Shown here in pieces: positions 1,095-25,651 of a stretch of DNA of 64,000 nt. Position 1 is the first letter of the stretch. Each line of letters starts with the position of its first letter. Made by a program: the position numbers and the translations under genes. This DNA is from Longimicrobiales bacterium. GTDB lineage: Bacteria; Gemmatimonadota; Gemmatimonadetes; Longimicrobiales; Gaopeijiaceae. The notes under the pieces were generated by a model. It was not told the origin of the DNA. It did not search any database and was given only the letters and a program-made list of their open reading frames with translations. The stretch lies in NCBI GenBank assembly GCA_963667485.2, contig CAXXDD010000001.1:913773-977772 (forward strand), in the 5' to 3' direction.

Positions 1095-2241
1095 CTATCG
1101 CCGCGTGACGTACTCGCTCCACGCCTGCATGACCTCGGCGCGGCGCTCCAGCAGGTCGGAGCGCTGATACGCCTGAACGACCTGGCTGCGCGGGACGTGG
1201 GCGAGGCAGGCTTCGACGACCTCGGCGGGGACGCCCGACTCGGCCATCCACAACCGCGCGCTCGACCGGAACCCGTGAACCGTCGAAGCGATACCGGCTC
1301 GCCGAAGCACGCGCCCCGGCACGTTCCTCGGCAATACCCCGCCCTTTCTCGACGGAAACACCAGCGACGAGTCGGGAGACAGCGCCCGCGCCCGCTCAAG
1401 CACCGCCAGCGCGCCCGCACTCAACGGGACGGAGAACTCGCGCCCGGCCTTCATCCTCGACGCCGGGATCGTCCACCGCGCCGCCTCCAGGTCAATCTCG
1501 TCCCCACCGCGCCCCGCGCGCCTCTCCGGCCCGCACCGCCGTCAACACGATCATCTCGACGCATACCACCGCCGACGGGTGGATGTACCTGACCCCGCGG
1601 ATCGCCCCGAGCGCGACCGCGACCTCCCGATGCGGAAGCGCGCGGAAATGAGTCGGCGCGTTGCCGTTCGCCCTCGGCAGCGCCACGACCGCCCGGTCCA
1701 CCGGGTTGTCCGGGCGGAGGTTCTTCCCAATGCACCAGCGAAAGACGGCGGAGATCCGGTTGCGGGCCTTCCGCGCGGCGGCGGGCTTCGATGTCCAGAT
1801 CGGCGCGAGGCACGCCAGCACGTCCGCGCTCGTGATCCGGTCCACCGGCTTTTCCAGGAGCGGAGCGGCGTGGAGACGGAATGACGACTCCCACTGCTGG
1901 GGTAATGGGCTCCCCGCCTTCCAACCGTCCCGATGCAACTCGATGGTGCGTTCGACCGCGTCGGCGAACGTCGGGACGCCGCGCCCGCGCGGGTCGCCGC
2001 CGTGGACGACGGCGCGGCTGTTGTCCAGCGCCTTCCGGCGCGCCTCGGCGAGCGTGATTTCGGGATACGGCCCGAGCCCGACCGAAGTCAGCCGTCCCTC
2101 GATCCAAAGTCGCTGGCGCCACGTTTTGCTGATGCGGCCGGTCTTCGTCCGGTGCACCCGGAGGCTTAGTCCCCGCCCGCCTCGCCCGTCGCCGTAGACG
2201 CCCGGACGGTTGACCGTGCGCACGAAGGCGGCCATCAGCAC
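1095..2241 (-). pseudogene. P4-type tyrosine integrase, split by a frameshift near 1454-1495
   Basis: ORF 1492..2241 encodes the N-terminal and core-binding part (YGDGRGG.GLSLRV, LGPYPEITLAEARRKA). ORF 1095..1454 encodes the catalytic C-terminus (HGFRSS, AYQRSD Tyr) in another frame. The expected linker EIDLEAARWTIPASRMKAGREF is readable across the junction. Confidence 0.8.
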
Positions 2242-2620: not shown

Positions 2621-2748
2621 GGCTTGCCTTCGGTCCGCACGGCAGGGTCGGCATCCGGGATGTCGTGGCCGGTAGCGTACGGTGGGCCGTGAGCTCTAGA
2701 TTCTGGTTCGTAGCAATTCGGCAGTCGAACACCCGAGGGGACGATACC

Positions 2749-3888
2749 ATGATCCAGAGATTCTACGCGGACAACTTCCGCTGTCTCGTGAACTTCGAAC
2801 TGAAGCTCGACGAGCTGAATGTCTTCTTGGGCTTGAATGGCACCGGCAAGAGCTCGGTGTTCGACGTGCTGCTGAAGATTCAGAGCCTCGTCTACCGAGG
2901 CAGAAGGGTCGACGAGGTCTTCCGGCGAAGGGACCTATCACAGCTTTACGCCGGCAACCACCAGGACAGCCCCGGCGACCACGAGGATGGTGGCGTGCGG
3001 CAGAAGCTCGAACTTGATCTCGACATCGCGGGTCACTCGTACCACTACCGGTTGAGCATCGGCCACCGCGAACCCAGGCTAATGCGAATTGACGAGGAAG
3101 TCCTTCTGTGCGACAAGAGACCCCTCTTCGAGTTCCGAATCGGCGAGGCTCAGCTCTACCGGGATGACGGGAGTCAAGGACCGAAGTACCCGTTCGATTG
3201 GACGCAATCTGGACTCGCTGCCCTGCATGAGCGGCACGACAACAAGAAACTGTCTCGCTTCAAGAGGGAGTTGGCGATGTGGACCATCGTCCAACCTTGC
3301 CCGCCGATCTTCGAGGAGGAAGCCAGGACGGAAGACGAGCTTCTGACACAGGCTATGACCAATTTTGTCGCGTGGTACCGCAGGGTCTCCCCTGAGCGGC
3401 TGGGCGCTGCCGTGGACTTACTGGGTGATCTCCGTGACGTGCTTCCCTCATTTGAGTCACTGAGTCTCATCGCCACTGGTGAAAATGCTCGTGCATTGGA
3501 GGCTGTGTTCAAGCGGCCTCACAAGCGTTCGCGGTACCGGCTCGGGCAGTTGTCGGACGGGCAGCGGGCGTTGATCGCCCTGTATTGCCTACTGCGATTC
3601 TGCGACGGAGGGGCGGCGAGGGCGTCGCTGTTCGTCGATGAGCCCGACAACTACATCTCGCTGCGTGAAGTGCAGCCGTGGGTCGTGGCGCTCTCCGAAG
3701 CCTTGGGAGACACTCTCGAACAGGCTGTCATCATCTCCCATCACCCCGTGACAATCGACTACCTGGGCGGGAAGGCCAAGTGGTTCTTCCGGGATGACGA
3801 CGGACTGGCGCGGGTGAAGTACGAACCACCTTCGTCGGTGGGGCCGGCATCCTATTCCGAAGTGGTCGCACGGGGTTGGGAGCGGTGA
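2749..3888 (+). CDS. ABC/SMC-like AAA ATPase (AAA_21/COG4637-like), first gene of a two-gene module
   Basis: Start is at MIQRFYADNFRCL. It has Walker A GLNGTGKSS, a signature-like LSDGQRALIAL, Walker B LFVDEPDNYIS and an H-loop ISHHP. The annotated ORF start (2497) is upstream MobC remnant read in the same frame. Confidence 0.8.
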   Translation: MIQRFYADNFRCLVNFELKLDELNVFLGLNGTGKSSVFDVLLKIQSLVYRGRRVDEVFRRRDLSQLYAGNHQDSPGDHEDGGVRQKLELDLDIAGHSYHYRLSIGHREPRLMRIDEEVLLCDKRPLFEFRIGEAQLYRDDGSQGPKYPFDWTQSGLAALHERHDNKKLSRFKRELAMWTIVQPCPPIFEEEARTEDELLTQAMTNFVAWYRRVSPERLGAAVDLLGDLRDVLPSFESLSLIATGENARALEAVFKRPHKRSRYRLGQLSDGQRALIALYCLLRFCDGGAARASLFVDEPDNYISLREVQPWVVALSEALGDTLEQAVIISHHPVTIDYLGGKAKWFFRDDDGLARVKYEPPSSVGPASYSEVVARGWER

Positions 3889-4433
3889 GCACGAGCGTGG
3901 TCCTGCTCTGTGAGGACTTGCAGACGGACATGTTCCTCCGTCGCTTCCTCCGTCGCCGGTTTGGACGCGGGTTCCGTCACCGGATTCACAGTGTTCCGTT
4001 TGCGGCTGGGAGTGGATCCGGTGAGCAGCGCGTGCGTGAGCAGTTCCCCGACCAGTTGGAGCTGATTCGGGGCCGGCGCGGGGTTGTCCTGATCGCGGTC
4101 ACAGATGCGGACAAGGAATCGACGGCAGCTCGTCGAATGCAGCTTCAACAGCAGTGCGCGGTACGGGGCATCGTGGCTCTTCGAGCTTCGGATCCGGTTC
4201 TCGTTGTGGTTCCGCGCCGCAGTATCGAGACGTGGTTCCAATACCTGAGCGGCCACGAGTTCGACGAGACGACCCGCTATCGGCACCTCCGGCGTGAAGC
4301 CGATTGCCAGCCACTGGCCGACCGGCTGTTCCACATGTGCCACAAGCAACAGAAGCTCGCGGAGCCGGCCCCGGCCTCGCTGGTGGAGGCGTGCGAGGCA
4401 TACCCGAGGCTGAAGCGCCTACTCAAACGTTGA
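3885..4433 (+). CDS. Toprim-like small protein (DUF4276/RloB-like), coupled to the ATPase
   Basis: A GTG start overlaps the ATPase TGA (GTGA); TTG 3876 is the alternative start. Motifs are VVLLCEDLQTD (Toprim Glu), IAVTDADKE (DxD) and VVVVPRRSIETWFQYL. Confidence 0.6.
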   Translation: MSTSVVLLCEDLQTDMFLRRFLRRRFGRGFRHRIHSVPFAAGSGSGEQRVREQFPDQLELIRGRRGVVLIAVTDADKESTAARRMQLQQQCAVRGIVALRASDPVLVVVPRRSIETWFQYLSGHEFDETTRYRHLRREADCQPLADRLFHMCHKQQKLAEPAPASLVEACEAYPRLKRLLKR

Positions 4434-4641
4434 TTGGATCGTAAGAGCGGCCACCTGGATGTAGATCCCACCCTTCGTTCGGCAGGCCCCGCCCCGCCCG
4501 ATCATCGACTGCTAGGTCATCTGCACCTGCCTACGATCGCTGAACTACCTGCGGCCGCCTGTGCCCTGCGATCCATGGGCATAGGACACCCGCTCCGGCG
4601 GGACACACCAATCCGGCGGGCTCACTGTGCCTTTCGTGCGG

Positions 4642-5430
4642 TCAGGAATGGCGCTGGGCGAGGAAAGCGCAAAGTGAGCCGGCGACGGACACGATCAGCT
4701 CGGCCTCTGTGGCGTCGATGGTCTGCTGTTCACGAATGTGGCGTCCCCGGTCGGACGCGTAGCCCCAGAGCTTATGGACCGCTTGATTGAGCGGTGCAGG
4801 CAAGCTCAGCCTGCTGACGAGCTTGCCGAGTGTCGGATTTGGCTGCCCGGTCACTTCGCGAGCAGTCGCTTCAAGCGCCGCCATGGCGTGCTGGATGGCG
4901 CCGGTAGAATCCGGGACAGGGCGCCGCGAAATGTCCCCCAAGGCTTCCCGCAGTTCGTTCGCTGCCGTTTGGAAGCCTGACTCCTTCAAGATACGAGGCG
5001 TGTCCTGGGTGCTCTTGACGAACGATTCAGAGCCCCTGTGGACGATCTTTCCATCGCAGAGCTCCCAACCGATTCCGTTTTCGACCAAGAACTCGTTCAA
5101 GCGACGAGCGAAGTTCGCAGTGACACTCGTACCGTAAATGCGGATACGAGCGTACAGGGATTCTGCGATATCGTAGACCCTGTACCACGGGGCGTACATC
5201 AAGTCCCGGTGAACCTCATCCCAGATGTTCGGGTATTCAGACCAGTTGTTGGAGTCAGGCGTCACCAACAAGACTTGGCATACCACATCGCGCATGCTGG
5301 ATGGGTTCATCCCTGCTTCCTGCGCGAGGATCAAAATGGCACCCCGCAACTCCGGTGGCGCTTCCTCGCGGACAGTGATCGGAGCGGCGGGTGGCCGGTA
5401 GCCCTCCCGGTCCGAGAAGCGTTCAGTCAT
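4642..5430 (-). CDS. AbiJ-NTD4-type N-terminal domain protein with a HEPN-like C-terminus
   Basis: The N-terminus MTERFSDREGYRPP...PPELRGAIL resembles the AbiJ N-terminal domain 4 signature (FS.R.GY). The C-terminus has TGAIQHAMAALEATARE...KLWGYASDRGRHIRE. Its ATG overlaps the hsdM stop by 8 nt (ATGACTGA). Confidence 0.6.
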   Translation of the reverse strand: MTERFSDREGYRPPAAPITVREEAPPELRGAILILAQEAGMNPSSMRDVVCQVLLVTPDSNNWSEYPNIWDEVHRDLMYAPWYRVYDIAESLYARIRIYGTSVTANFARRLNEFLVENGIGWELCDGKIVHRGSESFVKSTQDTPRILKESGFQTAANELREALGDISRRPVPDSTGAIQHAMAALEATAREVTGQPNPTLGKLVSRLSLPAPLNQAVHKLWGYASDRGRHIREQQTIDATEAELIVSVAGSLCAFLAQRHS

Positions 5431-6973
5431 GGGTTGCCTTCTCCTGTTGTTCCGGCGGGAGCCCAGTTCCTGGCATACCATTTCCTGCGGTTTCAAGCTC
5501 CCCTGCAACCGCCTGAAACGCCTCCAGCGCCGCCTCCAGGTCCTCCACTATCTCCGCCGCCAGCACCTCGGGCTCGGGCAGGTTCTCGCTGTCCTCAAGC
5601 GCGCTGTCCTTGAGCCAAAGCAAGTCCAGGTTCAGCTTTTCGCGCTTGGCCAGTTCGTCATACTCGAACGCCCGCCAGCGGCCGCCCTCGTGCTCCGCGC
5701 TCCACGTCGCCTCCCTCCTGTGGCGTTCCCCCGGCCGGTAGCAGGTAACGAAGTCGTCCAGGTCGGCGCGCCGGAGCGGCTTCATCTTGAGCGTGAAGTG
5801 CTTGTTGGTCCGCAGGTCGTAGACCCACAGCCGCTCCGTCCACGGCTTCTCTCGCGCGGGCTTCGCGTCGAAGAACAGGACGTTCGCCTTCACCCCCTGA
5901 GCGTAGAAGATCCCGGTCGGGAGCCGGAGAAGCGTGTGCACGTCGAACGCTTGGAGCAGGTTCCGCCGCACCGTCTCGCCCGCGCCGCCCTCGAACAGGA
6001 CGTTGTCGGGAACCACAATGGCGCAGGTGCCGTGCGGCCGGAGAAGCGTCTTCACGTGCTGGAGGAAGTTGAGTTGCTTGTTCTTGGTGCTCGTCCAGAA
6101 GTCCTGACGCTCGTAGGTGTCGGACTCCGTCTCCAGTTCGCCCTCCTCGTTCACGATCCGGACGCTGCTCTTCTTGCCGAACGGCGGGTTGGTGAGCACC
6201 ATCGAGAAACGCTCTCCGGGGTCGTTCGCCAAGCTGTCCACTCCCGACCGGATCGGGGGCTCGTCCGGGGCGACTCCGTGCAGGTACAGGTTCATGATGC
6301 AGAGCCGGGCGGTCGCGGGCACGATCTCCCAGCCGTGTACGAAGCTCGTCCGCAGGTGCGCCTTCTGGTCGGGGTCCAGCGTGCTCCCGTGCTCGCGGAC
6401 CACATGATCGTGTGCGGCGAGCAGGAAGCCGCCCGTGCCGCAGGCGGGATCGCACACGGTGTCGTCCGGCCCCGGACGAACGCAGTCCACGACGGCCTTG
6501 ATGAGTTCGCGGGGCGTGAAGTACTGGCCCGCGCCCTTCGGCGACTCCTGGGCCGACTTGGCCAGCAGGCCCTCGTAGATGTCGCCCTTCACGTCCGCGC
6601 GCATCGACATCCAGTCCTCGGGGTCGATCAGGTCGACGATCAGGCGCTTCAGCGTCGCCGGGTTCTGTATCTCCTGACGGGCCTTCTTGAAGATCTCGCC
6701 GAGCATCCCGCCCCGCTTGGGAAGCTCCGTCAGGATGCTTCGGTAATGCGTTTCAAGCTCCTCACCATCGCGGGCGAGGAGGCTCGGCCAGTCGAGTCCC
6801 TCCGGCACGATGGGAGGCCGGTTCCACGGCGGCTGGGTCCTCTGGTGCGCCATCTTCAGGAACAGCAGGAATGTGATCTGTTCCGTGTAGGCCATGTAGG
6901 ACAGGCCATCGTCGCGGAGCAGGTGCGCGAAGCTCCACGCCTTGTTGACGATCTGCCGGGTGTCGTTCGGCAT
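5423..6973 (-). CDS. hsdM: Type I restriction-modification system, N6-adenine DNA methyltransferase subunit
   Basis: It has an HsdM N-terminal domain (IVNKAWSFAHLLRDDGLSYMAYTEQITFLLFLKM), an AdoMet motif DPACGTGGF and the catalytic LTNPPFGKK. Confidence 0.93.
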   Translation of the reverse strand: MPNDTRQIVNKAWSFAHLLRDDGLSYMAYTEQITFLLFLKMAHQRTQPPWNRPPIVPEGLDWPSLLARDGEELETHYRSILTELPKRGGMLGEIFKKARQEIQNPATLKRLIVDLIDPEDWMSMRADVKGDIYEGLLAKSAQESPKGAGQYFTPRELIKAVVDCVRPGPDDTVCDPACGTGGFLLAAHDHVVREHGSTLDPDQKAHLRTSFVHGWEIVPATARLCIMNLYLHGVAPDEPPIRSGVDSLANDPGERFSMVLTNPPFGKKSSVRIVNEEGELETESDTYERQDFWTSTKNKQLNFLQHVKTLLRPHGTCAIVVPDNVLFEGGAGETVRRNLLQAFDVHTLLRLPTGIFYAQGVKANVLFFDAKPAREKPWTERLWVYDLRTNKHFTLKMKPLRRADLDDFVTCYRPGERHRREATWSAEHEGGRWRAFEYDELAKREKLNLDLLWLKDSALEDSENLPEPEVLAAEIVEDLEAALEAFQAVAGELETAGNGMPGTGLPPEQQEKATHD

Positions 6974-8490
6974 CAGGGGATTCGGCTCTTGAGTTGGAGT
7001 CTCGGCTTCGCCGGGCGGCGCTTTCTCCGCTTCCGTTCCGATTTCCGCTCGGCCCGGATGCGCTCCAGCAGGACGGACGCAGGTTCGTCGGTGGGATCCT
7101 GCGGTACCAGCCGGCCCTCGAACGCGCGCTTCAGGATGGACTGGCGGAGGGCAGTCGTTTGGTGCAGCAGATCGGCGATCGCGCCGGTCGAGCGCATGAC
7201 CGCATCGCTCGCGTCATCAGATCGGCGAATGATCTCGCCCAGCTCCGCCTCCGGGGGCAACGGGAACGGAAAACCGCGCAGCTTCGTCCCGTTCACGTTT
7301 GCTTGACCAACCTGCTGGGAGACCACTGAGGCGATCCATGCTCGTCCCCAAGATGAATTCAAAGCGTTGGCCACAACCGGAGACAGTCGCGCGCGCAGAA
7401 TCCTCACGCTGATGAGATAGGACGCGAAAGAACACGGATCTGGACGACCTCTGTAGACTGCCGTCTTACCCACCAGTTCGGCGCTATTCGTGCGATTGAA
7501 TAGCAGATCACCGTCCCTGAGCAGGAGCTTCGGAAACTCACGGTGATCGAATGGAAGGTACTTGAGATCTTGGAGATCGAGTGCGCCTTGCTGGATGTTC
7601 CCCATGCGCAGCACCGGTACGCCTTCTGGCTCTGGGGAAGTCTTCGCCGAAGATCCGTATTGCACGGTCAGGCTCACCTGATCCACCGTCGCCCAGCACC
7701 ACCCTTCCGGCAGTTCCGGCAACCCGCTCGCGTCCGGTGCCACCGGCTCCTTGTACTTCGCCTTCCAGTTGCGCGGCGGTTTCCTCCCCTGCGCCTCGAA
7801 CTTTGCGAGTTGCTCCGCCTCCCAGCGCTTCCGCCGTTCGGCCAGGATGCGGCGAAGCAGTTGCTCGCCGGTCTCCTCGGGCGGATTTTCTTTCCTCCAC
7901 TGTTCGGTCAGCCTGCCCTCGACCGCCGACTTGAGGACGGAAGCCCGGTAGCGCTCCAGATTGGCCTCCGCCCGCTTCAGCGCGGCGACGCCCTCGTCCA
8001 GTTCGGCGAACAAGGACTCTATCCTGGCGACGATTCGACGCTGCTCAGGAAGGGGGGCAAGCCCGAAGCGATACTTGCCAAGCCGCTGGGCGGAAACGCG
8101 AGGCAGGTTGACACCAGCCGAGTTGGCACTCGCATACGCGACGAGATCGCTGGACGACAACAGGTGCATCAGGAGCGCGTTTGCCAACGCGGAAGACTCC
8201 TTGAACACGAGGAACTCGGTCGAGCCGACGCCGGACTCGTGGGGGCGGACCACCTTGTTCAGGTAAGGCCGCAGTCGTCCGTACAGCACGTCGCCGGAGG
8301 AAAACGCGGCGACGGTGCTCTTCACTCCTTCGGAGCATCGGTGGCCGGTGATTCGGTTGGTACCGCTCGCGACATGTTCGAGGCCGATGTACTTGGTCGG
8401 GCCTATCGCCGCGGGCCGTACTCGGGCTCGTGACTCGCGCCACACCTCACCCAACTCCACCTCCGCCCAACCCGTCGGCAACGCGCTCAT
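6973..8490 (-). CDS. hsdS: Type I restriction-modification system, specificity subunit
   Basis: There are two target-recognition domains separated by coiled-coil conserved regions (LPEQRRIVARIESLFAELD; ALRQSILKRAFEGRLV). ATGA overlaps occur at both ends, with the hsdR stop and the hsdM start. Confidence 0.9.
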   Translation of the reverse strand: MSALPTGWAEVELGEVWRESRARVRPAAIGPTKYIGLEHVASGTNRITGHRCSEGVKSTVAAFSSGDVLYGRLRPYLNKVVRPHESGVGSTEFLVFKESSALANALLMHLLSSSDLVAYASANSAGVNLPRVSAQRLGKYRFGLAPLPEQRRIVARIESLFAELDEGVAALKRAEANLERYRASVLKSAVEGRLTEQWRKENPPEETGEQLLRRILAERRKRWEAEQLAKFEAQGRKPPRNWKAKYKEPVAPDASGLPELPEGWCWATVDQVSLTVQYGSSAKTSPEPEGVPVLRMGNIQQGALDLQDLKYLPFDHREFPKLLLRDGDLLFNRTNSAELVGKTAVYRGRPDPCSFASYLISVRILRARLSPVVANALNSSWGRAWIASVVSQQVGQANVNGTKLRGFPFPLPPEAELGEIIRRSDDASDAVMRSTGAIADLLHQTTALRQSILKRAFEGRLVPQDPTDEPASVLLERIRAERKSERKRRKRRPAKPRLQLKSRIP

Positions 8491-11291
8491 GCCGCCAGCC
8501 TCTCGTTCAACTCGGCCAGCACGCCGTCCAGATCCTTGCCGAACGCGCGCCATGCGCCACCGAGCCCGCCCCACTGGTTGAACGGCACGTCCTCGAAGTC
8601 CTCCCGTTCTATCGCAAGACTGGAAGCGATATGGTCCTTGATTGCGTCCAGCCACCGCCGCTGCTCGGCGGCGAACTCGTGCCCTCCGCGCGCCTTCTCC
8701 TCCAGCCATGCCTGGTAGCGCGCCTCCACCTGCTCGGCCACGGGAACGAGCGCCTCCTCGGGCTTGATCGCGTGCCTCACGATGGCGACCAGATCGACGA
8801 GCGCATTCCCGCCCCTGCCCGTGACCTTCTCCGGCTCCAGCGCCTCGTAGAGCCGCCACAGACCGTTGGCCGGGTCGTGAAGGCTGACCGGCGGATTCCG
8901 CAGCGCGTCCCTGAGCTCCTTGACGTGGCGGTAGCGAAGCCCGGCCCGGTACGGCTGGCTGTACAGGATCCGGAGCGCCTCGATCTCGTCCTTGTTGTCT
9001 TCGACGAACCGCTGGAAGTCGTCCAGCTTCGAGCGCGCGCTCTCGACCGCCGCCTCGCTGTGCCCGAAGTCGAGCAACACGTCGATGGCCGCCTCGTCGA
9101 TGATCTGGTAGAGGCTCTGATGGATCTCGATGATCGCCTTCCTGAGCCCCGGCTTGGTGAACGGCTTGAGGGCCTCGGCCATGCGCTCGCGCTCCACGGC
9201 GTCCAATTGCTGCGAGGTCGGATCGTCGTCTTCGGCCAGCCCGTACCGCTCCACCGCCGCGTCGTGGGTCAGGTGCGGGTCGATGCTGTCGAGCAGAGTC
9301 CCGGTCAGCGCCGCCAAGCTCAGTCCGTCCGCCTCCTTCGCGATCCGCGCCGCCTGCGTCTCGTCCACCCGCCTTCCCAGGCGCGCCAGACGCGACGCGA
9401 GACTCGACACCAGATCCGCGTGCGCCATCCCCATCGCGGCGCTCTGAAGCAACTTCTTCAAGCTGGCCGAAGGCTTTCGCTCCAGAGGAGGCGATAGCGT
9501 CTTGTCGCGCTCGCAGACGCCGACCGCATCGACGATCACGAAATGGGTCTTGTGCTCCGCGTCCGGGGTGACCTTCCGTAGATCGCCCGGCTTGATGACG
9601 CGCACGCCCCGGCCCTTCATCTGCTCGAAGTAGCCGGCCGAATTCACGTTGCGCATGAAGAGCAGGCATTCGAGCGGCTTCACGTCGGTGCCCGTCGCGA
9701 TCATGTCCACGGTGACCGCGATGCGCGGATGGTAGGAGTTGCGGAAACTGCTGAGCCGGTCCTCCGGCGACGCGCCCGTCGTCTTCGAGGTGATCTTTCG
9801 GCAGAACTCGTTGCCCTTGCCGAACTCCTCCTTGAGGATCTTCACGATGTCGTCGGCGTGGCTGTCGTTCTTCGCGAACACGAGCGTCTTGGGGACTTCC
9901 TTTCGGCCTGGGAAGATCTTCGTGAACAGATGGTCGCGGAAGGTGCGCGCGACGAGCCGGATCTGGTCCGGGGCAACCACGTCGCGGTCGAGTTGGTTCG
10001 CCGTGTACGTGAGGTCGGCCCCGAGCTCCGCGTGCGTCGTCTTGCGGGTCCGCCGGTCGCGCCGGGGCACGTACGCGTCGGCCTCGGCCAGCACGGCTCC
10101 GCCCTCCTCGGAGATTTTCGTCTTGATGCGGTAGATGTCGTAGCCGACGTTGATCCCGTCCGCCACCGCCCTGGTGTGCGAGTAGTCCTGCACGACGTTG
10201 TTGCGGAAGAACCCGATGGTCTGCGGACTCGGGGTCGCGGTCAGGCCGATGAGGAAAGCGTCGAAGTACTCGACGACCTGCCGCCAGACGTTGTAGATCG
10301 AGCGGTGGCACTCGTCGATGACGATGAAGTCGAAGTGCTCGATCGGGAGACCCGGCGTGTATTCGACCGGAACGGGCTCGCCGCCGAGCGGGCCGCTTGA
10401 CTCGAACAGCGACTCGTCTTCGTTGGCGGGGTCGTACTCGGGATCGCCCTTCAGCATCGAATAGAGGCGCTGGATGGTCGTGATGACCACCTTGCTGGAT
10501 ACCTTGATCGCGTTGCCGCGCAGCCGTTGGACCACGAACTCGTCGGCGAAGGCGTACGCGGAGCCGGTATCCCGGAACTCCTGGAACTCTCTCAAGGTCT
10601 GTTTGCCGAGGTTGTTGCGGTCCACGAGGAAGAGGATGCGCTCGGCCTTGGCGTGCTTGATGAGCCGGTGGCAGGCCGTGACCGACGTGAACGTCTTCCC
10701 GCTGCCCGTCGCCATCTGGATGAGGGCGCGTGGGCGGCCGTGGGCCAGCGACCGTTCAAGCTCCTGGATCGCCTCGTACTGCACGTCCCATAGGCGCCCC
10801 TTGGGGAGCTCCGGCATCTCTCGGAGCAAACCGCGCAACTGTGCCGGACCGAGGCCTTGCAGCCGCAGTAGTTCCTCCGGCCGGTGGAATGTAAAGATCT
10901 CCCGGCTGCGCGGTTCCGGATCGAGTCCGTTGGTGAACTGCGTGACCTCGCCGGTGGACTCGTAGGCGAACGGGAGCGGGCGGTTCCAGGCCGGGACCCA
11001 CTTGTCCAGTCCCTCCGTGTACTTCTCGGATTGCGTCAACACGCCCTGAAGCGTGTGCCCGGCGGGTTTGGCCTCGATCACGCCGATGGCCCGTCCGTCG
11101 GCGTAGAGCAGATAGTCGGCAAAGCCGGACTTGATCTCCGCGCCCTGCTTCCACTTCAGCGGATACTCCCGAACGGCCACGCCGCGCGCCGTGTGGATGT
11201 CCATGGACGCGAAGTCCTGAACCGCCCACCCGCAGGCATCGAGTTGCCCGTCGATCTTCTCGCGGGCTCGCTGTTCGGGCGTCAGGGGCAC
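8487..11291 (-). CDS. hsdR: Type I restriction enzyme, R (helicase/endonuclease) subunit
   Basis: The N-terminus reads EQRAREKIDGQLDACGW..FADYLLY..IGVIEAKP (a nuclease motif). Helicase motifs are MATGSGKT, a DEAH-like VIDECHRS and LTATP. It has a GTG start. Confidence 0.9.
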   Translation of the reverse strand: MPLTPEQRAREKIDGQLDACGWAVQDFASMDIHTARGVAVREYPLKWKQGAEIKSGFADYLLYADGRAIGVIEAKPAGHTLQGVLTQSEKYTEGLDKWVPAWNRPLPFAYESTGEVTQFTNGLDPEPRSREIFTFHRPEELLRLQGLGPAQLRGLLREMPELPKGRLWDVQYEAIQELERSLAHGRPRALIQMATGSGKTFTSVTACHRLIKHAKAERILFLVDRNNLGKQTLREFQEFRDTGSAYAFADEFVVQRLRGNAIKVSSKVVITTIQRLYSMLKGDPEYDPANEDESLFESSGPLGGEPVPVEYTPGLPIEHFDFIVIDECHRSIYNVWRQVVEYFDAFLIGLTATPSPQTIGFFRNNVVQDYSHTRAVADGINVGYDIYRIKTKISEEGGAVLAEADAYVPRRDRRTRKTTHAELGADLTYTANQLDRDVVAPDQIRLVARTFRDHLFTKIFPGRKEVPKTLVFAKNDSHADDIVKILKEEFGKGNEFCRKITSKTTGASPEDRLSSFRNSYHPRIAVTVDMIATGTDVKPLECLLFMRNVNSAGYFEQMKGRGVRVIKPGDLRKVTPDAEHKTHFVIVDAVGVCERDKTLSPPLERKPSASLKKLLQSAAMGMAHADLVSSLASRLARLGRRVDETQAARIAKEADGLSLAALTGTLLDSIDPHLTHDAAVERYGLAEDDDPTSQQLDAVERERMAEALKPFTKPGLRKAIIEIHQSLYQIIDEAAIDVLLDFGHSEAAVESARSKLDDFQRFVEDNKDEIEALRILYSQPYRAGLRYRHVKELRDALRNPPVSLHDPANGLWRLYEALEPEKVTGRGGNALVDLVAIVRHAIKPEEALVPVAEQVEARYQAWLEEKARGGHEFAAEQRRWLDAIKDHIASSLAIEREDFEDVPFNQWGGLGGAWRAFGKDLDGVLAELNERLAA

Positions 11292-11328: not shown

Positions 11329-11616
11329 TCAGGCCACCGCGAAGCGCTCGACGGCGATCTCCCCGGCGCGGCCTCGGGCCTGCCACAGATCGTACGCCAT
11401 CTGCATCCCGAGCCAGACTTCCGGCGTCGAGCCGAAGGCCTTCGACAGCCGGAGCGCCATCTCGACCGAGACCCCGGTGTGCCCGTTCAACAACTCCGAT
11501 AGCGCCTGCCGGCTGACGCCCAACCCCTCGGCGGCCCGCGTCACGGTCAGCCCCAACGGTTCGAGGCACTGCCGCCTCACGATGCCGCCCGGATGCGGCG
11601 GGTCGTGCATGGCCAT
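11329..11616 (-). CDS. higA: HigA-family antitoxin (XRE HTH)
   Basis: MAMHDPPHPGGIVRRQCLEPLGLTVTRAAEGLGVSRQALSELLNG...EVWLGMQMAYDLW is the typical HigA pattern. Confidence 0.85.
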   Translation of the reverse strand: MAMHDPPHPGGIVRRQCLEPLGLTVTRAAEGLGVSRQALSELLNGHTGVSVEMALRLSKAFGSTPEVWLGMQMAYDLWQARGRAGEIAVERFAVA

Positions 11617-11632
11617 GATCTTCGCTTCTCCT

Positions 11633-11915
11633 TCAATGGTAGTCCACGTAGTCGGCATCGGCCGCCGCGCCGTCCTCGAACCGGAAGGTAACCCGACAGT
11701 TGCCGGACACCGACACCGCGTAATGTCCCTTCAGCCGCCCCCTTGAGCGCGTGCAGCCGGAAGCCCGGAAGGTCCATGCCCTCCGACCCCCGGCTCAAGT
11801 CGAGCGCCGCCAGGATGTCCCGCAGCTTCGCCACATGCTCCGGCGCGACCCGCCGCGCCGTCCGGCCCTCGTAGAGCGCCTTCAGGCCACGGTGGCGGAA
11901 CGATGCGATCATCAT
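11633..11915 (-). pseudogene. higB: HigB (RelE/ParE-fold) toxin interrupted by a 1-nt frameshift in a C5/G5 run (11738-11742)
   Basis: The N-terminal 59 aa read MMIASFRHRGLKALYEGR...DLPGFRLHALKG. After removing one G, the frame reads RLKGHYAVSVSGNCRVTFRFEDGAAADADYVDYH-stop, the canonical HigB C-terminus. The span is 283 nt, which is 3n+1. Confidence 0.8.
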
Positions 11916-12066: not shown

Positions 12067-12396
12067 ATGACCAAAGCCGATCTCGTTGCACAGGCCGCCG
12101 TTGTGGTCGGCCCGAGGGTTACCAAGAAGGACTGCGGGCTAGTGGTGGACGCTTTTCTCGACGCCGTGAAGGACGCGCTCGCACGGGGAGAGGGCATCGA
12201 GATCCGGGGATTCGGGACGTTCAAGGGGCGGCACCGCAAGGCCCGCGCCGCCCGCAACCCCAGGACCGGCGAACCGGTCGAAGTTGCCGCCTGCGCCGTG
12301 CCGGTGTTCCAGCCATCGAGACTCCTCCGCGACCGCGTGGCCCGGGGGCAGGGCTCCACGCCCACCGAGGGCCATCGGATTCTACTAAGCGGCTAG
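12067..12396 (+). CDS. HU/IHF-family DNA-binding protein
   Basis: MTKADLVAQAA...VDAFLDAVKDALARGEGIEIRGFGTFKGRHRKARAARNPRTGEPVEV is the HU/IHF beta-arm motif. GGAG lies upstream of ATG 12067. Confidence 0.85.
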   Translation: MTKADLVAQAAVVVGPRVTKKDCGLVVDAFLDAVKDALARGEGIEIRGFGTFKGRHRKARAARNPRTGEPVEVAACAVPVFQPSRLLRDRVARGQGSTPTEGHRILLSG

Positions 12397-15300
12397 CAGT
12401 CGTCAGTGTCGCGCCGGGAGTAGCCGTGTTTGATAGCCACTTGAACGAGAGCTTCCCGCTTTTCGGACGGTGCCCATCGGAGAGGAGCCAGATGCGCGTC
12501 CTTCGGTGCATGGCGGCGCAGGAGCACGGCGTATAGATCAGGATCGCCGACGACAAGATACCGAAACAACGTCGGGTTGGCGTCCTCCGGGATCGCGCTG
12601 ATCAAGTCTCGGCGATCTTCCAGGTCCAGACTGGCGCTCGCGGTGGAAAGCAATCCTTCGTCCAGCGAAGGTTCCTTGAGGCGTTGGTTGAAGCGAGCCT
12701 GCCATTCCGCAATGGTCAGGTTGGACGAGCCGGCGTCGGAAGCCAAATGCCGCCTTCTTCTGCGGACAGAACTCGCTCGGGCCTCCGACAGGATCCAAGC
12801 ACGCGCGATGCCCGCATTCGCGCGCAACACCTCAGACATCAACCGGTCGTTGCGCCAGGTCACAACGGCGTCCTCCCAAGCAGGGCCAAGCCGTCCACCC
12901 GGTCGGCGCTTTCCGTTGGCTGCCCAGATGCCGCCCGCAACAGCCCCGCGGACGGTTGGTTCCGGATGCCGCAGGAGGCGGTGCTTCCATTCGCGGGCTA
13001 CAGTGTTCCAGTCGATCGAGTGAGACAGCATATCCTCGGCCCAGCCTTGCACCTGCTGCATGATGCGATCGACGATCGCTGCGGGGAGCCCGGCAAAGCA
13101 CAAACCAACACGCACACACGGCACTGTGTATCGGTCATCCCTTGCAACGGCTTCCCAAGCCCGTTCGCTCGCTGCCGGGATCACGGCAGCGGCTTCCAGA
13201 AACGGACCGACCCACGCCGGCGGCGCTTCGCGATCCACCAGTTCTTCGAGCCACGGCCCTGGGTCGTTTACGCGCTGAGCAAGATGCATGGGAATGTGTT
13301 CCAGCACGCCTGGGTAGTTGTGCCCCATCAGTTCTCGTTGGCGTTCGTAGTGCATCAGGCGCGTGACCACAGCCGCTGGCCCTTCGGGTCGCCATTTCCG
13401 ACCAAATACGCGCGCGGCCGCATCGAGTGGACCTCGAGACCAGTTCCGCGAATCGAGTTCTGCCGGGTTGGGGAACAGCTGGCACAGAGTTGCATCACCG
13501 ACCTCAGGCAGCCTCACTTCCAGTCGGCGCTCGGTCGCGAGCCTATGCGCCCAGAGCAGGATGCCGGGTTCGTTTCCGGCCAGGTCGAGAACTGTGGGCA
13601 ACACCCGTCGGACCAGGTCGCGCGCCGCGAGCTTGGTCTCGTCCAACTCCTTGCCTGCGCGGGGTCCGATGAGCCAGTCGTGGACCACGTTCCGCGCACA
13701 AGACACGCCGGATCGGCCCAGACCGCGAAAAACAGGCAGCGCCAAGGCCCAGAGATCTTCAATCTCCCGGACTTCGGACGCCGAAAGCGAGCCGAAACCA
13801 ATTGAGATCTTGGTGATCTCTATCGGATCATCGCGCCACGTCTCGAAGGACAACGAGAAGGCAGCAGCGAGGAGTTCGGTTACCACCTCTCGACTTGCTT
13901 GGTTCAAATCAACGCTGGCGGTCCGTTCGGCCAGTGCGCGCACAAGGAACTCGCGGCGGTCCACGGCGTCACCGCCTGGCTGGCTGGCCAGGATCCATGT
14001 GCGGATCGATTTGGTAAGGGCATCGGCCTCGCCTGGATGGTCAAGAGCTCTGGAAACGAGTTCTCCCAGAAACCGGTCGGGCGCCTGTCTGAGCGCCGCG
14101 CCGGATATCAGAACCGTCCGGTCCGGATGTTTGTCCAGAATCCAGCTTGCTGCTTCTGCACCTGTGCGTGCGTACGATGACCACAGGGTGCTCCCGACGT
14201 GGGGGCTCTCCTGCTTCCTCAACCGCGTTCTTATCAAGTCATGTAGCTGCCTCTGGGTCTCATGGCCCAGCGATGGTCCCCCCCTCGCGAGTACGTCGAT
14301 CAGCGTCTCGGTACACGCTGCGGCATCTTGTACGCGGTCAATCGCCGGTTCAAGTGTCAGGCTGGATGCGCCCGAGAAGAAAGTGCGCTTCACGAGGGCA
14401 TGCCTCAGATGCCAGGGATGGATCGCAGCGGCGCCCCCTCGAATGTCGCGCAGGATACCGGTGCCGGATGCTTGCAGCAGAGATTGCCGCACGTTCGTTT
14501 CAGCCGTGTGCAACGCTTGAGCCGCCGCAGCAAGTCTCATGCCAGCGGTCCCCCCCAGCGCGAAGGCCGCCAGATGATCGAGCTCTGATCCGGCCAGCCG
14601 GGCGTCCTTCTTCACTTCGGAGAGCAACAGCTTGCCCGTGGCCAGATCGGCAAGGTCGCCCAGGCTGGCGTATCGGGCCAAAGTGACCGCCAGTCCCGGC
14701 CGAACATGCCCGCCCTGGTGGTATTCCGCAGTCAGTGGATCATCGGTCGGCACGTTGTCGACGCTCTGGTTGAGGATCTCGCCAACCAGATGGTCGGAGA
14801 ATCCGGGATGCACTTGCCGTACGATCTTTTCTGCCGTCTCTCGGTCGAGTCCTCTCACTGGCAAGACTCCTTCCGGCGGGCAATGAATTTCCCGCCTTAC
14901 TTCTCCTTCGCGGCTGGGCCAGGTTGTGGCGACGATCGAAAACTCCGCACCGATCTCGGCGCGCAGCCGGGTCAGGCTAAGGATGAGCGAGTCGCTCAGG
15001 TGGGCATCGTCTATGAAGATTCGGGGCGGGCGCTGCGCTCGATACGCGTCGGCGATCCGCCGCATGTTGCCGGGGGCCACGACCATCGCGCCCCCGGTGC
15101 AGCTCACGATCGAAAAAAGGCCGCCGCCCTCCCCAGCGAGCGCTTCGAGGAGCGCCGTTTTCCCGACCCCGGGTTGTCCGACGACGACAACGTCTCCGCT
15201 GGCTCGGCGGAGCCAGCCCATTTCCCGCTCTCGGCCCACGAGGTCGAGCGTCAGGCGAGATCCGGCCTTGCCTGGTAGAGCGGAGAGGGCTGGCGGGTCG

Positions 15301-15740
15301 CCGGTCAGGCCGAGGAGTTGCTTGCGCCACATCGAGTCCCGATACAAACGACCCACGAAGTCGTGGCGGTCATGGATGTTCCGGAGCGTGAAGCCGAGTT
15401 CGCGGGCGCGCTTCTCAAGATTGCGGCGCTTGGGTGGAGTGAGTGATCGAGGTGTGGCCAGGACCGCCTCGCGTGCCGACCCGCCGGTCCGCCCATAAGA
15501 ACTCAGGTTTCGTTTGAGGTTGCCCAGAACGTCCTCGCTGGTTGTGGCGATCAGGGGGAGGGGCGATCCCGTCCTAATCGAAATCGAACCGTCCATGCCA
15601 CCGTCGTGCCCGCCCGTGATCGGCACGATCCCCGGATAAACGTCCCGCAACAAATCCACGGCGCATCGTTCGAAGAGATCCGCATCAAGCCGCTCGCCCA
15701 AGCCCTCTTCTATGCTGCGGTACAGCGGATCCCTGACCAT
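12393..15740 (-). CDS. Large (1115 aa) protein: Mrr/PD-(D/E)xK-like N-terminus + P-loop NTPase + about 750-aa alpha-helical C-terminus (STAND/Avs-like architecture)
   Basis: The N-terminus reads LFERCAVDLLRDVYPGIVPITGGHDGGMDGS (Mrr-cat-like FE...DGGxDG). It has Walker A VVVVGQPGVGKTALL and Walker B PRIFIDDAH. The remainder is Leu/Ala/Arg-rich with no recognisable enzymatic motif. Confidence 0.65.
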   Translation of the reverse strand: MVRDPLYRSIEEGLGERLDADLFERCAVDLLRDVYPGIVPITGGHDGGMDGSISIRTGSPLPLIATTSEDVLGNLKRNLSSYGRTGGSAREAVLATPRSLTPPKRRNLEKRARELGFTLRNIHDRHDFVGRLYRDSMWRKQLLGLTGDPPALSALPGKAGSRLTLDLVGREREMGWLRRASGDVVVVGQPGVGKTALLEALAGEGGGLFSIVSCTGGAMVVAPGNMRRIADAYRAQRPPRIFIDDAHLSDSLILSLTRLRAEIGAEFSIVATTWPSREGEVRREIHCPPEGVLPVRGLDRETAEKIVRQVHPGFSDHLVGEILNQSVDNVPTDDPLTAEYHQGGHVRPGLAVTLARYASLGDLADLATGKLLLSEVKKDARLAGSELDHLAAFALGGTAGMRLAAAAQALHTAETNVRQSLLQASGTGILRDIRGGAAAIHPWHLRHALVKRTFFSGASSLTLEPAIDRVQDAAACTETLIDVLARGGPSLGHETQRQLHDLIRTRLRKQESPHVGSTLWSSYARTGAEAASWILDKHPDRTVLISGAALRQAPDRFLGELVSRALDHPGEADALTKSIRTWILASQPGGDAVDRREFLVRALAERTASVDLNQASREVVTELLAAAFSLSFETWRDDPIEITKISIGFGSLSASEVREIEDLWALALPVFRGLGRSGVSCARNVVHDWLIGPRAGKELDETKLAARDLVRRVLPTVLDLAGNEPGILLWAHRLATERRLEVRLPEVGDATLCQLFPNPAELDSRNWSRGPLDAAARVFGRKWRPEGPAAVVTRLMHYERQRELMGHNYPGVLEHIPMHLAQRVNDPGPWLEELVDREAPPAWVGPFLEAAAVIPAASERAWEAVARDDRYTVPCVRVGLCFAGLPAAIVDRIMQQVQGWAEDMLSHSIDWNTVAREWKHRLLRHPEPTVRGAVAGGIWAANGKRRPGGRLGPAWEDAVVTWRNDRLMSEVLRANAGIARAWILSEARASSVRRRRRHLASDAGSSNLTIAEWQARFNQRLKEPSLDEGLLSTASASLDLEDRRDLISAIPEDANPTLFRYLVVGDPDLYAVLLRRHAPKDAHLAPLRWAPSEKREALVQVAIKHGYSRRDTDDC

Positions 15741-15889
15741 CCTCAGCCTCCGATCAGCCAGGCCAGCAGGCCGGTTGGAACCGCAACGAGTTCGGGATCG
15801 TTCAAGTCCAACGCACTTCGTGTGGCCATTACTCCGCGCCGTCTTGACGCGGCCAAGGTGCGTTGTCCGCCGATCTCGGCGACGCAGTA

Positions 15890-17585: not shown

Positions 17586-17926
17586 TAGGGCGTCACATGA
17601 TTGTGGTTCATGCCTGCAATGTAGCAGGTGGCCCGGCACCGGTCTTGCGCCCACAAGGAGTGCCAATCGCCTGCGGGCGCGGGTTCAGCAGGTCGGCGCG
17701 GTCATATCGTGGAACTACGATTTCCGCTCACCCGAGGAGCGGTAGACGTTACCGAGTAGAGAGATCGTCAATCGGCCTTGGCATGGCCGGGTTCCGCACG
17801 TTCGCGGCGGTGTCTTCTTGTCCGCGAGGTACCGCGGCAGCAACGGCTGAGATTTCCCGCCATTCAATAGCGGTTTTCTCGCTACTCGCAGTGGTCGGAG
17901 TCCGGCGCGGCCCAACGGCAGGAAAC

Positions 17927-17994: not shown

Positions 17995-19050
17995 TACCCC
18001 GTGTAATACACCGGGGCTGGCGAGGGGTGGCCCTGCCCCCCTTCGATCCCCCCGAGAATCGCGCTCCCTTGGAGGTCGCGAATGAGGGCGCCGCCCCCTT
18101 TCCCCCGTGTCGGTGCGGCGTGATGCCTGAGCGCCGCGCCGCCCGTCGTCACCGCCCGCATATCGGCGGCCGAGTCCGCCACAGGGTTGTCGCCGAGGCG
18201 AAGGCGTACCCCGATGGCGTCTCTACCTCCAACGTCCTCCCCCGTGGTGGCGTTCGAGCCGTCTTTGTCGGCGGACCCGTTTTGAGCGCCGAATGTGGGT
18301 GTTGGTGGCAAGTCCTGCGTGTCCGGCTCACTTTGAGGGTCGCCGGACACGAAATCGCCGTTCGGCCGGACACGGCCCCGGCCGTCCATGTCGCTGGTGC
18401 GCTTGCGTTTGCACCACGGCCAGCGGAGCGCCGACGCCAGTCCGCGCTCCTTGGACGTGGCTGGGAGTGACCCCCATCTCGGCAAGACCTCGATTGGCGC
18501 CGGGGAGGATGGAGCCGGACAGCCCCATCCGCCCCGCCGCTGCGGGGTCACTCCCAGCCAACAGTCCTTCCCGGAAGGGTGTCGAGCGCCGCTTCGAGCT
18601 GGAGGACCCGTTGCCCGACCACTTGGCCGCCGGGCTGTCCGACATCGCCGGCCAAGACCGGGAACGCGCCCGTTCCGGCTCGCCGTTTGGCCTTCCCGCA
18701 CGGGATTGCTGGCCCGTAGCGACCTCCCGCGGAGGATGGCATGGCGTGTCCATGCCAATCCTCCCCCATGGCACGCCAGGTGCCCAAAGTGGGGGGTCGC
18801 TACGGCCACGCCCGCAAGCTCCCGCGCGACACGGCCGCGTCTGCGGCCATGTCGCAACCGAAAGGCGGGCCGCGACATGCGGAATCATGAGCGTGTCCGC
18901 TGAAGGGACGCTTTCGTGTCCGCCCACCTCCAACGTCGGACGGACACCCACGCTACGGCCCCGGCGACAGGGTTCCGGGCCGGGGACCTCCTTCCGGGCG
19001 ACTGACACACGCACTGGCGGAGACGGCTTCTCTCGGCGAAGTTTCCTTCG

Positions 19051-19067
19051 CGCAGATCGTGCAGTCC
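19051..19067 (+). repeat. Third copy of the 17-nt core motif cgcagatcgtgcagtcc, ending 17 nt upstream of the integrase ATG
   Basis: Exact 17-nt match to 17926-17942. The flanks are not similar. Confidence 0.85.
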
Positions 19068-19084
19068 ATCACGCGAGGAATCGA

Positions 19085-25369: not shown

Positions 25370-25414
25370 GCCTTGTCAACCACCTGATTCCAACCCGTCG
25401 GGTCGGCCCGCCGG

Positions 25415-25651
25415 TTGATCCCACGCACGCGCCGGTCCGGTCCGGCATGCACGTTCACCAGCACATCGACCGACGACACGGGGATCGAGTCGTACCTGTG
25501 GTCGACGGGCGACGGCGCACCGGCGGGCACCAAATCCGCGCATCAGCACACCTACGGAAGCGCTGGAACGTACACGGTAACGCTGGTGGTTCGGGACCGG
25601 CACGGCGGATTCGGCGCGGCGCTGTACCAGATCCAGGTCGGGGACCGTTGA
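25415..25651 (+). pseudogene. Isolated PKD-domain ORF (fragment)
   Basis: CTFTSTSTDDTGIESYLWSTGDGAPAGTKSAHQHTYGSAGTYTVTLVVRDRHGG is a canonical PKD signature. There is no signal peptide or credible start. It is in the same frame as 24962-25369, separated by stops at 25367 and 25388. Confidence 0.5.

Follow-up and report, generated by a model that had tools for sequence, protein, structure and literature searches.

Described ATPase-Toprim pairs and a related locus

Pairs of an ATP-binding cassette (ABC) ATPase and a Toprim protein, as found in OLD, Gabija, PARIS and AbiL, are among the most widespread bacterial immune architectures. In one branch, comprising HEC-01 and the Mad3/Mad4 pair, the partner of the ATPase is a DUF4276 protein; DUF4276 is a member of the Toprim superfamily according to PMC12065111. 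HEC-01, the 'Hma-embedded candidate 01' of PADLOC, consists of the ABC ATPase HEC-01A and the DUF4276 TOPRIM protein HEC-01B (Payne et al., bioRxiv 10.1101/2024.01.29.577857), and HEC-01B can be superposed on the Burkholderia pseudomallei OLD protein at its Toprim metal site (bioRxiv 10.1101/2024.01.29.577857). Experimental trials of the ABC ATPase/DUF4276 pairing had a mixed outcome: HEC-01 was negative in one study (bioRxiv 10.1101/2024.01.29.577857) and positive in another, in which cold-seep HEC-01 was protective against at least one of T4, T5 and T7 (PMC12881386). Deletions of Mad3 and Mad4 lower MADS defence, and in PARIS the AriA cage releases the tRNase AriB (PMC11464382). Here we describe a pair of genes, termed gene 1 and gene 2, located on a stretch of 64,000 nucleotides (nt) from a Longimicrobiales bacterium (contig CAXXDD010000001.1), which is referred to as the window. 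As judged from its sequence, the locus is a divergent, distant relative of HEC-01 and Mad3/Mad4, and this kind of system is already known. We consider it probable, at roughly 0.6, that the pair is a two-gene mobile defence module in which an ABC-ATPase sensor or regulator controls a metal-dependent nuclease of the Toprim type.

The two genes are arranged as follows (aa, amino acids; residue numbers refer to the gene 1 or gene 2 protein throughout):

2749-3888, plus strand: gene 1, ATG start, 379 aa, ending in WER-TGA (stop codon 3886-3888); SMC/Rad50-type ABC ATPase (AAA_21/AAA_15)
3885-4433, plus strand: gene 2, GTG start at 3885-3887, 182 aa; Toprim-like protein of the DUF4276/DUF3226 superfamily, presumed nuclease effector
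3885-3888, plus strand: GTGA stop/start overlap (translational coupling), read directly

An earlier reading of this DNA from its letters alone (the sequence-only reading) had given the same gene coordinates, lengths of 379 and about 182 aa and the GTGA overlap, and the listing of open reading frames (ORFs) together with direct reading confirmed them.

Comparison of the pair with described systems

HEC-01 and the window pair share the gene order, with an ATPase followed on the same strand by a small Toprim-like protein of about 190 aa. Gene 1 aligns with HEC-01A over almost its full length (residues 2-357 on profile positions 4-373 of 406 in PADLOC) and thus provides the A component; hhalign comparison with the HEC-01A protein tested from Pseudomonas agarici gave a probability of 85.6% (E 5.6e-6, 308 columns). 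The Glu, G-x-Q, DxD and E-x-aromatic motifs of HEC-01B align with the gene 2 family, and HEC-01B fits gene 2 in position and size, with a weak score (E 9.5e-4, residues 64-118). The two systems differ in that the homology of gene 2 to HEC-01B is remote and comes without a Pfam DUF4276 match, that the window pair is not Hma-embedded, that the helical C-terminal half of gene 2 with its partly conserved cysteines is specific to the family, and that the top PADLOC model of gene 1 is PDC-M25A and not HEC-01A. Since HEC-01 is represented in PADLOC by many B-subfamilies and some gene 2 relatives reach E ~1e-8 on these models, we file the locus within the known kind. The guess of the sequence-only reading that this is an AAA_21 + DUF4276 pair was borne out, gene 1 being matched by Pfam AAA_21 and relatives of gene 2 by DUF4276 and DUF3226. 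The novelty that it implied was not, as this pairing is already known from HEC-01 and also from Mad3/Mad4. PDC-M25 was rejected as an identification: its A component is the best match of gene 1, and PDC-M25B is matched neither by gene 2 nor by its relatives.

MADS of Pseudomonas aeruginosa SMC4386 likewise contains an ABC ATPase, Mad3, with a DUF4276-type partner, Mad4, and in both cases the pair adjoins a methyltransferase of the restriction-modification (R-M) type. The window pair differs in being an autonomous cassette that is not part of an eight-gene operon. An assignment to MADS itself was discarded: the NCBIfam model antiphage_MADS3 scored 42.3 bits against a cut-off of 420 and covered only the N-terminal 69 residues of gene 1, and a PADLOC scan of seven window neighbours did not find the mandatory MAD6, MAD7 and MAD8, yielding only type I R-M models and a generic mad2 match of HsdM.

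PARIS, which belongs to class 4 of the OLD family and consists of the ABC ATPase AriA and the DUF4435 Toprim protein AriB, also has ATPase and Toprim split over two adjacent genes and is often found with R-M. The logic is likely shared as well, with an ATPase scaffold that restrains a Toprim nuclease until a phage protein is sensed. The window proteins are, however, shorter (379 and 182 aa, compared with 55 kDa for AriA and 35 kDa for AriB), neither gene 2 nor any of 178 relatives matches DUF4435 or AriB, and the AriA models match only fragments of gene 1, namely residues 265-337 (2e-10) and 1-43 (8.7e-9), which hold the signature and P-loop segments. AbiL is a two-gene pair too, made up of the ATPase AbiLi and the RloB-like Toprim protein AbiLii, and gene 1 scores with AbiLi (E 6.9e-11). 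The gene 2 protein of the window has no AbiLii or RloB match, and its relatives have marginal ones only. The sequence-only reading had judged the pair shorter than the PARIS proteins and closer to an AAA_21 + DUF4276 pair, in agreement with these results. OLD proteins of classes 1 and 2 (P2 Old, Gabija GajA) contain the same two domain types, and the ATPase resembles the N-terminus of the OLD structure 6p74. In these classes ATPase and Toprim are fused in one polypeptide, whereas the window has two ORFs joined by the GTGA overlap. OLD classes 1-3 were rejected for this reason and because OLD-like_TOPRIM is matched by a single one of 150 gene 2 relatives and no helicase or reverse transcriptase partner (UvrD/RT in classes 2 and 3) is conserved.

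Conservation of the pair and coding evidence

A relative of gene 2 was found at 227 loci among 185,579 species genomes, and pairing was surveyed in the best 80 of these 227 stretches from GTDB species genomes (loci are labelled L001, L002 and so on). The co-occurrence of homologues, which the sequence-only reading had proposed as a check, was evident: a gene 1 homologue (34-96% identity) is located directly upstream of gene 2 on the same strand in 79 of the 80 loci, and the one locus without it is cut off by the end of its contig. Stop and start codons overlap by 4 nt or 1 nt in 48 of 67 intact pairs. In these 67 pairs, pairwise protein distances of gene 1 and gene 2 correlate with r = 0.89, a value reached by none of 999 Mantel permutations.

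Comparison of variable sites in nine close relatives showed that most variation is carried by third codon positions, for gene 1 (52/40/135) as well as for gene 2 (48/33/62). Both plus-strand frames are therefore under coding constraint, and the same bias excludes as the gene an antisense ORF of 165 aa (3852-4349, minus strand), which is preferred in some public gene calls (L084:5223-5720). A second apparent anomaly, the truncation of gene 2 to 112 aa in the public calls of L086, L087 and L090, is a gene-calling artefact with a late start; the DNA of these loci differs from that of an intact allele of 176 aa by one substitution, located past the stop codon. Such antisense and late-start calls help explain why the gene 2 family is under-annotated. 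In the window, a TTG at 3876 is an alternative in-frame start of gene 2; the GTG is favoured by the overlap usage in relatives. Gene 2 homologues elsewhere start three to four residues ahead of the first strand. Across the pair the G+C content is 0.60-0.61, compared with about 0.67 for the window, which agrees with the lower-G+C patch described in the sequence-only reading.

Gene 1 is an ABC ATPase head

Gene 1 encodes an ABC ATPase head of the SMC/Rad50 type that lacks a coiled coil. All motifs of ABC ATPases are present in canonical order, including the Walker A, signature-like, Walker B and H-loop motifs that had been picked out earlier, and they are conserved in 27 relatives:

2830-2853, plus strand: Walker A/P-loop GLNGTGKS (G28-S35, with Lys34); G28, N30, G31, G33 and K34 invariant
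3001-3003, plus strand: Q-loop Q85; invariant
3547-3564, plus strand: ABC signature variant QLSDGQ (Q267-Q272); Q267, S269, D270, G271 and Q272 invariant
3625-3648, plus strand: Walker B and D-loop SLFVDEPD (S293-D300); S293, L294, F295, D297 and P299 invariant
3739-3744, plus strand: H-loop H331-H332; invariant

E298 and D300 are conserved in at least 90% of these relatives. In Pfam, gene 1 matches AAA_21 (1.8e-8) and AAA_15 (3.2e-8), with weaker matches to SMC_N and ABC_tran, and the best PADLOC models, each covering nearly the full length, are PDC-M25A (6e-19), mad3 (6.7e-16) and HEC-01A (8.7e-16). A profile search against the PDB returned generic ABC heads (ARB1, the OLD 6p74 N-terminus, Rad50 and PtuA) at E ~1e-6. 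The AlphaFold model of gene 1 is poor, with a model confidence (pLDDT) of 61.7, and a Foldseek search with this low-confidence model retrieved Rad50/SMC heads along with a retron-complex ATPase, again at E ~1e-6. According to the table of the PADLOC authors, HEC-01, HEC-02, PDC-M25 and PDC-M38 share the ATPase family FAM_00005 and differ in their second genes. Since the best PADLOC matches of gene 1 are models of the HEC-01/PDC-M25 type, its sequence points to this effector-swapping FAM_00005 ATPase clade.

Gene 2 is a Toprim-like protein

Conservation in gene 2 was scored over 150 diverse representatives that are 29-52% identical to the window protein. The Toprim hallmarks LLCED, VTDAD and SIETW proposed in the sequence-only reading are present, and their acidic residues (E10/D11, D74, D76 and E115), conserved at 94-100%, rank among the best-conserved positions:

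3912-3917, plus strand: E10-D11 of LLCED (Toprim glutamate position), after strand 1; E10 98%, D11 94%
4023-4028, plus strand: E47-Q48 of GSGEQ, N-terminus of helix 46-61; 81% conserved, aligns with G-K-Q of DUF4276
4104-4112, plus strand: D74-A-D76 (the DxD of VTDAD), after strand 3; D74 100%, D76 98%
4212-4235, plus strand: P110-R-R-S-I-E115-T-W117, after strand 4; P110 99%, E115 94%, W117 100%

The AlphaFold2 model of gene 2 (pLDDT 91.5) consists of four strand-helix units (b1-a-b2-a-b3-a-b4-a; strands 4-8, 34-36, 67-72 and 105-108). It places the acidic residues in the loops after strands 1, 3 and 4 and predicts a helical C-terminal half.

A profile search of 1.84 billion cluster representatives retrieved 1,714 gene 2 proteins at E <= 1e-3, of which 1,373 at E <= 1e-10, so that the family comprises at least 1,714 clusters at 50% identity. 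Pfam models match only a minority of these relatives, and the window protein itself does not reach the gathering thresholds of DUF4276 (PF14103) and DUF3226 (PF11536). Two sets of relatives, 28 closer ones and the 150 representatives, were scanned one by one against Pfam and PADLOC. DUF3226 is matched by 6/28 and 28/150 (best 6.1e-8), DUF4276 by 6/28 and 18/150 (best 6.8e-6), and the HEC-01B models by 23/28 of the close and up to 28/150 of the distant relatives. The mad4 model is matched by 17 of the 28, and PDC-M38B is matched as well. Marginal matches were obtained with OLD-like_TOPRIM (1/150, E 0.0078), RloB (1/150, E 0.009) and AbiLii (3/28 and 1/150). The families that individual relatives match repeatedly are Toprim-like ones only.

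The sequence of the tested HEC-01B, the DUF4276 protein of P. agarici, was taken from the preprint supplement, and 22 relatives were collected, all of them DUF4276 proteins. hhalign comparison of the 150-member gene 2 alignment with these 22 proteins gave E 5.8e-4 over 108 columns and brought the motifs of both families into register: LLCED pairs with LLEE, G-x-G-E-Q with E-G-K-Q, DADxxS with DQDS, and R-x-I-E-T-W, the segment of E115 and W117, with R-E-L-E-x-F; a conserved Cys lines up as well. The comparison of the two single sequences, gene 2 and tested HEC-01B, was uninformative (probability 1%). Together, the sequence comparisons indicate that gene 2 is a remote superfamily relative of DUF4276/DUF3226 and not a member. 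Since Foldseek and PDB searches gave no significant match (see below), we call gene 2 Toprim-like only: it is so by remote homology and predicted topology and is not a structurally proven Toprim protein. The Toprim identity claimed by the sequence-only reading is thus upheld by sequence profiles and predicted topology and not by a structural match in Foldseek.

Five cysteines of gene 2 (C9, C91, C141, C152 and C170; 3909-4394) are kept in 61-83% of the 150 relatives, and most of them are located in the helical C-terminal half that is specific to the family. Together they might make up a site for metal binding or redox sensing.

The pair is a mobile cassette

The pair is flanked by two elements that define its edges:

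2642-2748, plus strand: conserved 5' leader, presumed promoter/operator; ribosome-binding site GAGGGGA ahead of the gene 1 ATG
4434-4515, plus strand: 3' edge of the shared cassette; homology stops between 4454 and 4515/4533

A consensus of the sigma-70 type was not found on the plus strand of the leader 2642-2748. The segment from 2642 to 4454/4515, which contains the two genes, the 107-nt leader and a short tail, is the only one that L001, L002, L004 and L081 share with the window, at about 93% nucleotide identity. The left edge at 2642 is also common to L083-85, and the upstream flanks of all sharing loci are unrelated. Clustering of the flanking ORFs revealed no conserved third gene; the largest clusters cover 11 of 79 loci and reflect synteny of housekeeping genes in Vicinamibacterales (a PQQ dehydrogenase, an Ogt-domain gene, HAD and thioesterase). 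Among the neighbours in the window, the AbiJ-like gene, the integrase, hsdS and the gene of a 1115-aa ATPase do not recur in any of the 80 related loci. Since only this segment is shared and no third gene is conserved, the pair forms a self-contained cassette, roughly 1.8 kb in length, which has been transferred among unrelated contexts and phyla. The family is patchily distributed, being present in about 0.1% of species genomes and in at least 10 phyla; its hosts include Gemmatimonadota, Acidobacteriota, Latescibacterota, Spirochaetia, Gamma- and Alphaproteobacteria, Cyanobacteria, lineages of the Verrucomicrobia type and Acidimicrobiia. The locus therewith defines a sister family that is large, keeps its two genes strictly paired and co-evolving, and is mostly missed by current domain models.

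In two groups of loci, further genes accompany the pair. In L086-L091 (5646-6951) and L094 (7747-8986), gene 1 is directly preceded on its strand by the genes for a DUF6772 protein (about 300 aa) and a small ORF of 111-129 aa, which may extend the operon in these two related lineages or be syntenic only. In the syntenic loci L092 (10670-11536) and L093 (13328-14173), a second, shorter AAA_21/AAA_15 ATPase of 281-288 aa is encoded downstream of the pair. Here, 338-545 nt past gene 1 are without a called gene, and gene 2 may be uncalled or degraded.

Decay and divergence of gene 2

Of 79 loci, about 9 carry a partial or frameshifted gene 2, compared with 3-4 for gene 1. In L041, a 1-nt deletion at the position equivalent to 4165 of the window frameshifts gene 2. 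Among L086, L087, L090 and L091, only L091, a closed contig of 4.1 Mb, carries a real deletion in gene 2: an in-frame loss of 342 nt (L091:8080-8400 compared with L088:8080-8660) removes approximately codons 5-118 and with them all catalytic motifs, and a 1-nt insertion is present near the 3' end. The gene 1 protein of L091 is identical to that of neighbouring populations with an intact gene 2. Gene 2 also changes faster, with a mean distance among close relatives of 0.151 compared with 0.094 for gene 1; in most of them identity to gene 2 is 82-88% and to gene 1 95-97%. These observations, small in number, fit a costly or fast-evolving effector.

Proposed mechanism

The starting points, observed directly, are the domain identities, the motif conservation, the strict pairing and coupling, the co-divergence, the mobility and the location in an island rich in defence genes; the defence role, the nuclease activity and its substrate, the contact between the two proteins and the trigger we infer. 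Gene 1 would act as a sensor or regulator, and the translationally coupled gene 2 would provide a small metal-dependent nuclease of the Toprim type, in which the acidic cluster E10/D11, D74, D76 and E115 is predicted to bind Mg2+/Mn2+. By analogy to PARIS, OLD and Gabija, the ATPase would keep the nuclease inactive. A cue from a phage or another mobile element would cause the ATPase to release or activate the nuclease, which would go on to cleave nucleic acid, either tRNA or DNA, and so block the invader's replication, by abortive infection or by direct interference.

Several results weigh against a mobile defence module with a Toprim-type nuclease. The window protein of gene 2 has no Pfam or NCBIfam match, with DUF4276 and DUF3226 remaining silent even at E <= 10, its match to HEC-01B is remote and spans 55 residues, and the probability of the hhalign comparison with DUF4276 is just 29%. 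A Foldseek search of the gene 2 model against the PDB returned no match at E <= 0.001 (best RadA, E 8e-3, TM score ~0.3), the top match in BFVD, an RloB-like protein, is non-significant (E 0.052), and PDB profile searches with the 28- and 150-sequence profiles gave chance-level matches or none. The P. agarici representative of HEC-01 conferred no protection in E. coli in the test of its discoverers (bioRxiv 10.1101/2024.01.29.577857). Neither among PLSDB plasmids nor among the viral contigs of IMG/VR did a relative of gene 2 turn up. Many loci are situated in metabolic or housekeeping neighbourhoods with at most a PIN-RHH pair near, and in about 10 Vicinamibacterales species the pair is found in one syntenic housekeeping context. 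The proximity of homologues to defence genes, which the sequence-only reading had proposed as a check, accordingly holds for the close relatives and not for many of the other loci. In their variable islands, the close relatives encode RHH-PIN, a HATPase_c_4/Fic-like_C protein, AbiEii, MNT/HEPN, GmrSD, ThiF with AAA_21, or type I R-M. The defence-island signal is, as a qualitative judgement, real for this lineage and not universal.

The locus leaves the picture of how ATPase-Toprim systems are built unchanged. The cassette boundaries (2642-4515) and the list of predicted catalytic residues make the branch easier to test.

Alternative readings

It is rather unlikely that, within ATPase-Toprim immunity, the gene 2 family forms a distinct autonomous branch that responds to a trigger and acts on a substrate of its own, for instance as a tRNase like AriB or P2 Old. 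Under this reading the partly conserved cysteines C9, C141, C152 and C170 may bind metal or sense the redox state, and the 1.8-kb cassette would spread among phylogenetically unrelated bacteria of one habitat.

The pair might also assist or guard the type I R-M system next to it, sensing anti-restriction proteins or R-M failure, and not be autonomous. Precedents are PARIS as a sensor of Ocr, PrrC as the guard of EcoprrI, and the service of Mad3/Mad4 to MADS. In the window, the pair is located tail-to-tail with an hsdR-hsdS-hsdM-abiJ operon, whose genes are not part of the module:

4642-5430, minus strand: AbiJ_NTD4/PDC-S32-like gene (Pfam AbiJ_NTD4 2.3e-24, PADLOC PDC-S32 6.7e-27)
5423-11291, minus strand: type I R-M operon with hsdR (8487-11291), hsdS (6973-8490) and hsdM (5423-6973)

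The R-M genes score clearly in PADLOC (MTase_I 1.6e-181, Specificity_I 8e-132, REase_I 2e-47). The AbiJ-like gene, which shares 8 nt with the end of hsdM, appears from its sequence to be the fourth and last gene of the operon and a candidate defence gene. The tail-to-tail arrangement with the R-M operon given in the sequence-only reading is correct for the operon as a whole, the immediate neighbour of gene 2 being this last gene. L083-85 and L041, all close relatives, likewise have type I R-M next to the pair, the HEC candidates came to light inside Hma systems, and L084 and L085 hold an ABC-DUF4435 fusion within the hsd operon. However, relatives of the window hsdM or hsdR are found near the pair in just 3 of the 80 loci, the shared cassette stops short of the R-M genes in L001, L002, L004 and L081, and many loci have housekeeping surroundings without R-M and no conserved neighbour. 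We therefore consider a guard function for R-M quite unlikely.

A non-enzymatic gene 2 that has a generic alpha/beta fold of the Rossmann-like kind and serves as adaptor or regulator, the effector activity residing elsewhere, for instance in the ATPase, would account for the weak Foldseek matches to RadA and otherwise to generic alpha/beta proteins such as lumazine synthase, for the PDB sequence searches without a match and for the low hhalign probability. It is nevertheless improbable: the near-invariant residues are the acidic set of the Toprim metal site at the expected loop positions, the weak matches converge solely on DUF3226, DUF4276, HEC-01B, mad4, RloB/AbiLii and OLD-like_TOPRIM, and the top BFVD match is an RloB-like protein.

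We give an equally slim chance to a selfish addiction module of the toxin-antitoxin (TA) type, in which a nuclease toxin restrained by the ATPase would stabilise the island and have no antiviral role. The Pfam label of AAA_21 ('putative AbiEii toxin, Type IV TA system'), the more frequent loss of gene 2, with the catalytic-core deletion beside an intact gene 1 in L091 and the frameshift in L041, and the TA pairs plentiful nearby are all consistent with it. Yet a 379-aa ABC ATPase with conserved hydrolysis motifs is an atypical antitoxin, related architectures of known function serve phage defence, and the cassette is maintained in conserved chromosomal surroundings where no mobile element is obvious.

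Least probable of all is a housekeeping pair for DNA repair or recombination like RecF-RecR or SbcCD: RecR is a Toprim protein, the nearest structures of gene 1 are Rad50/SMC heads, the syntenic Vicinamibacterales block includes an Ogt-domain gene, and Fpg and HhH-GPD glycosylase genes are located within 9 kb in L092 and L093, but the family is scattered over phyla in about 0.1% of species genomes, moves between unrelated flanks, shows pseudogenes and deletions, has no coiled coil or DNA-clamp features and finds its best profile matches in models of defence systems.

Genomic surroundings of the cassette

The cassette is housed in what appears to be one integrase-bounded island of about 20 kb (window 1-20300). 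Besides the operon described above, the island contains:

51-626: fragment of an IS110-type transposase
1095-1454 and 1492-2241, minus strand: tyrosine integrase, split into two ORFs
2278-2748: two ORF fragments in different frames, NikA-like (E 2e-4) and MobC (E 1e-3, motif GVNLNQIARAL), both weak
11329-11915: HigA and a HigB-like gene; the HigB C-terminus looks frameshifted
12393-15740: AAA-type protein of 1115 aa, no PADLOC match
16113-17510: DDE_Tnp_1_4 transposase
18293-20239: second integrase

The sequence of 2278-2748 suggests a frameshifted mobilisation gene of a decayed integrative mobilisable element; the homology of the cassette to other genomes begins (2642) within this NikA/MobC-like remnant. 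No tRNA genes were found in the 64-kb window.

The element with the DDE_Tnp_1_4 transposase (15888-17588) is 99.94% identical over 1701 nt to L004:9411-11111, in opposite orientation. L004 is a Longimicrobiales metagenome-assembled genome (MAG; CBDDPN010000010.1) in which the transposase copy adjoins the pair, and the copy in L001 is 80% identical. From these sequences, the element looks like a recently active insertion sequence common to these genomes.

In L083, the region equivalent to the AbiJ-like gene is called as fragments. The fusion in L084 (9846-11492) and L085 (9674-11320) is a 548-aa protein that joins an ABC ATPase (AAA_21/ABC_tran) to a DUF4435 Toprim, resembling a merged PARIS; it is encoded between hsdM and hsdS, a few kb from the pair, and constitutes a second ATPase-Toprim system there. 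The surroundings of L095 contain integrases, RusA, a KAP NTPase and ParA.

Outside the island, an ORF of 1597 aa (25306-30099) carries leucine-rich repeats together with Big_2 Ig-like domains and a Peptidase_M66 segment. Eukaryote-like repeat proteins are often reported from host-associated bacteria. The names of many cassette-bearing MAGs (COS4, CAR3, RHO3, SB0662) suggest studies of marine sponge symbionts.

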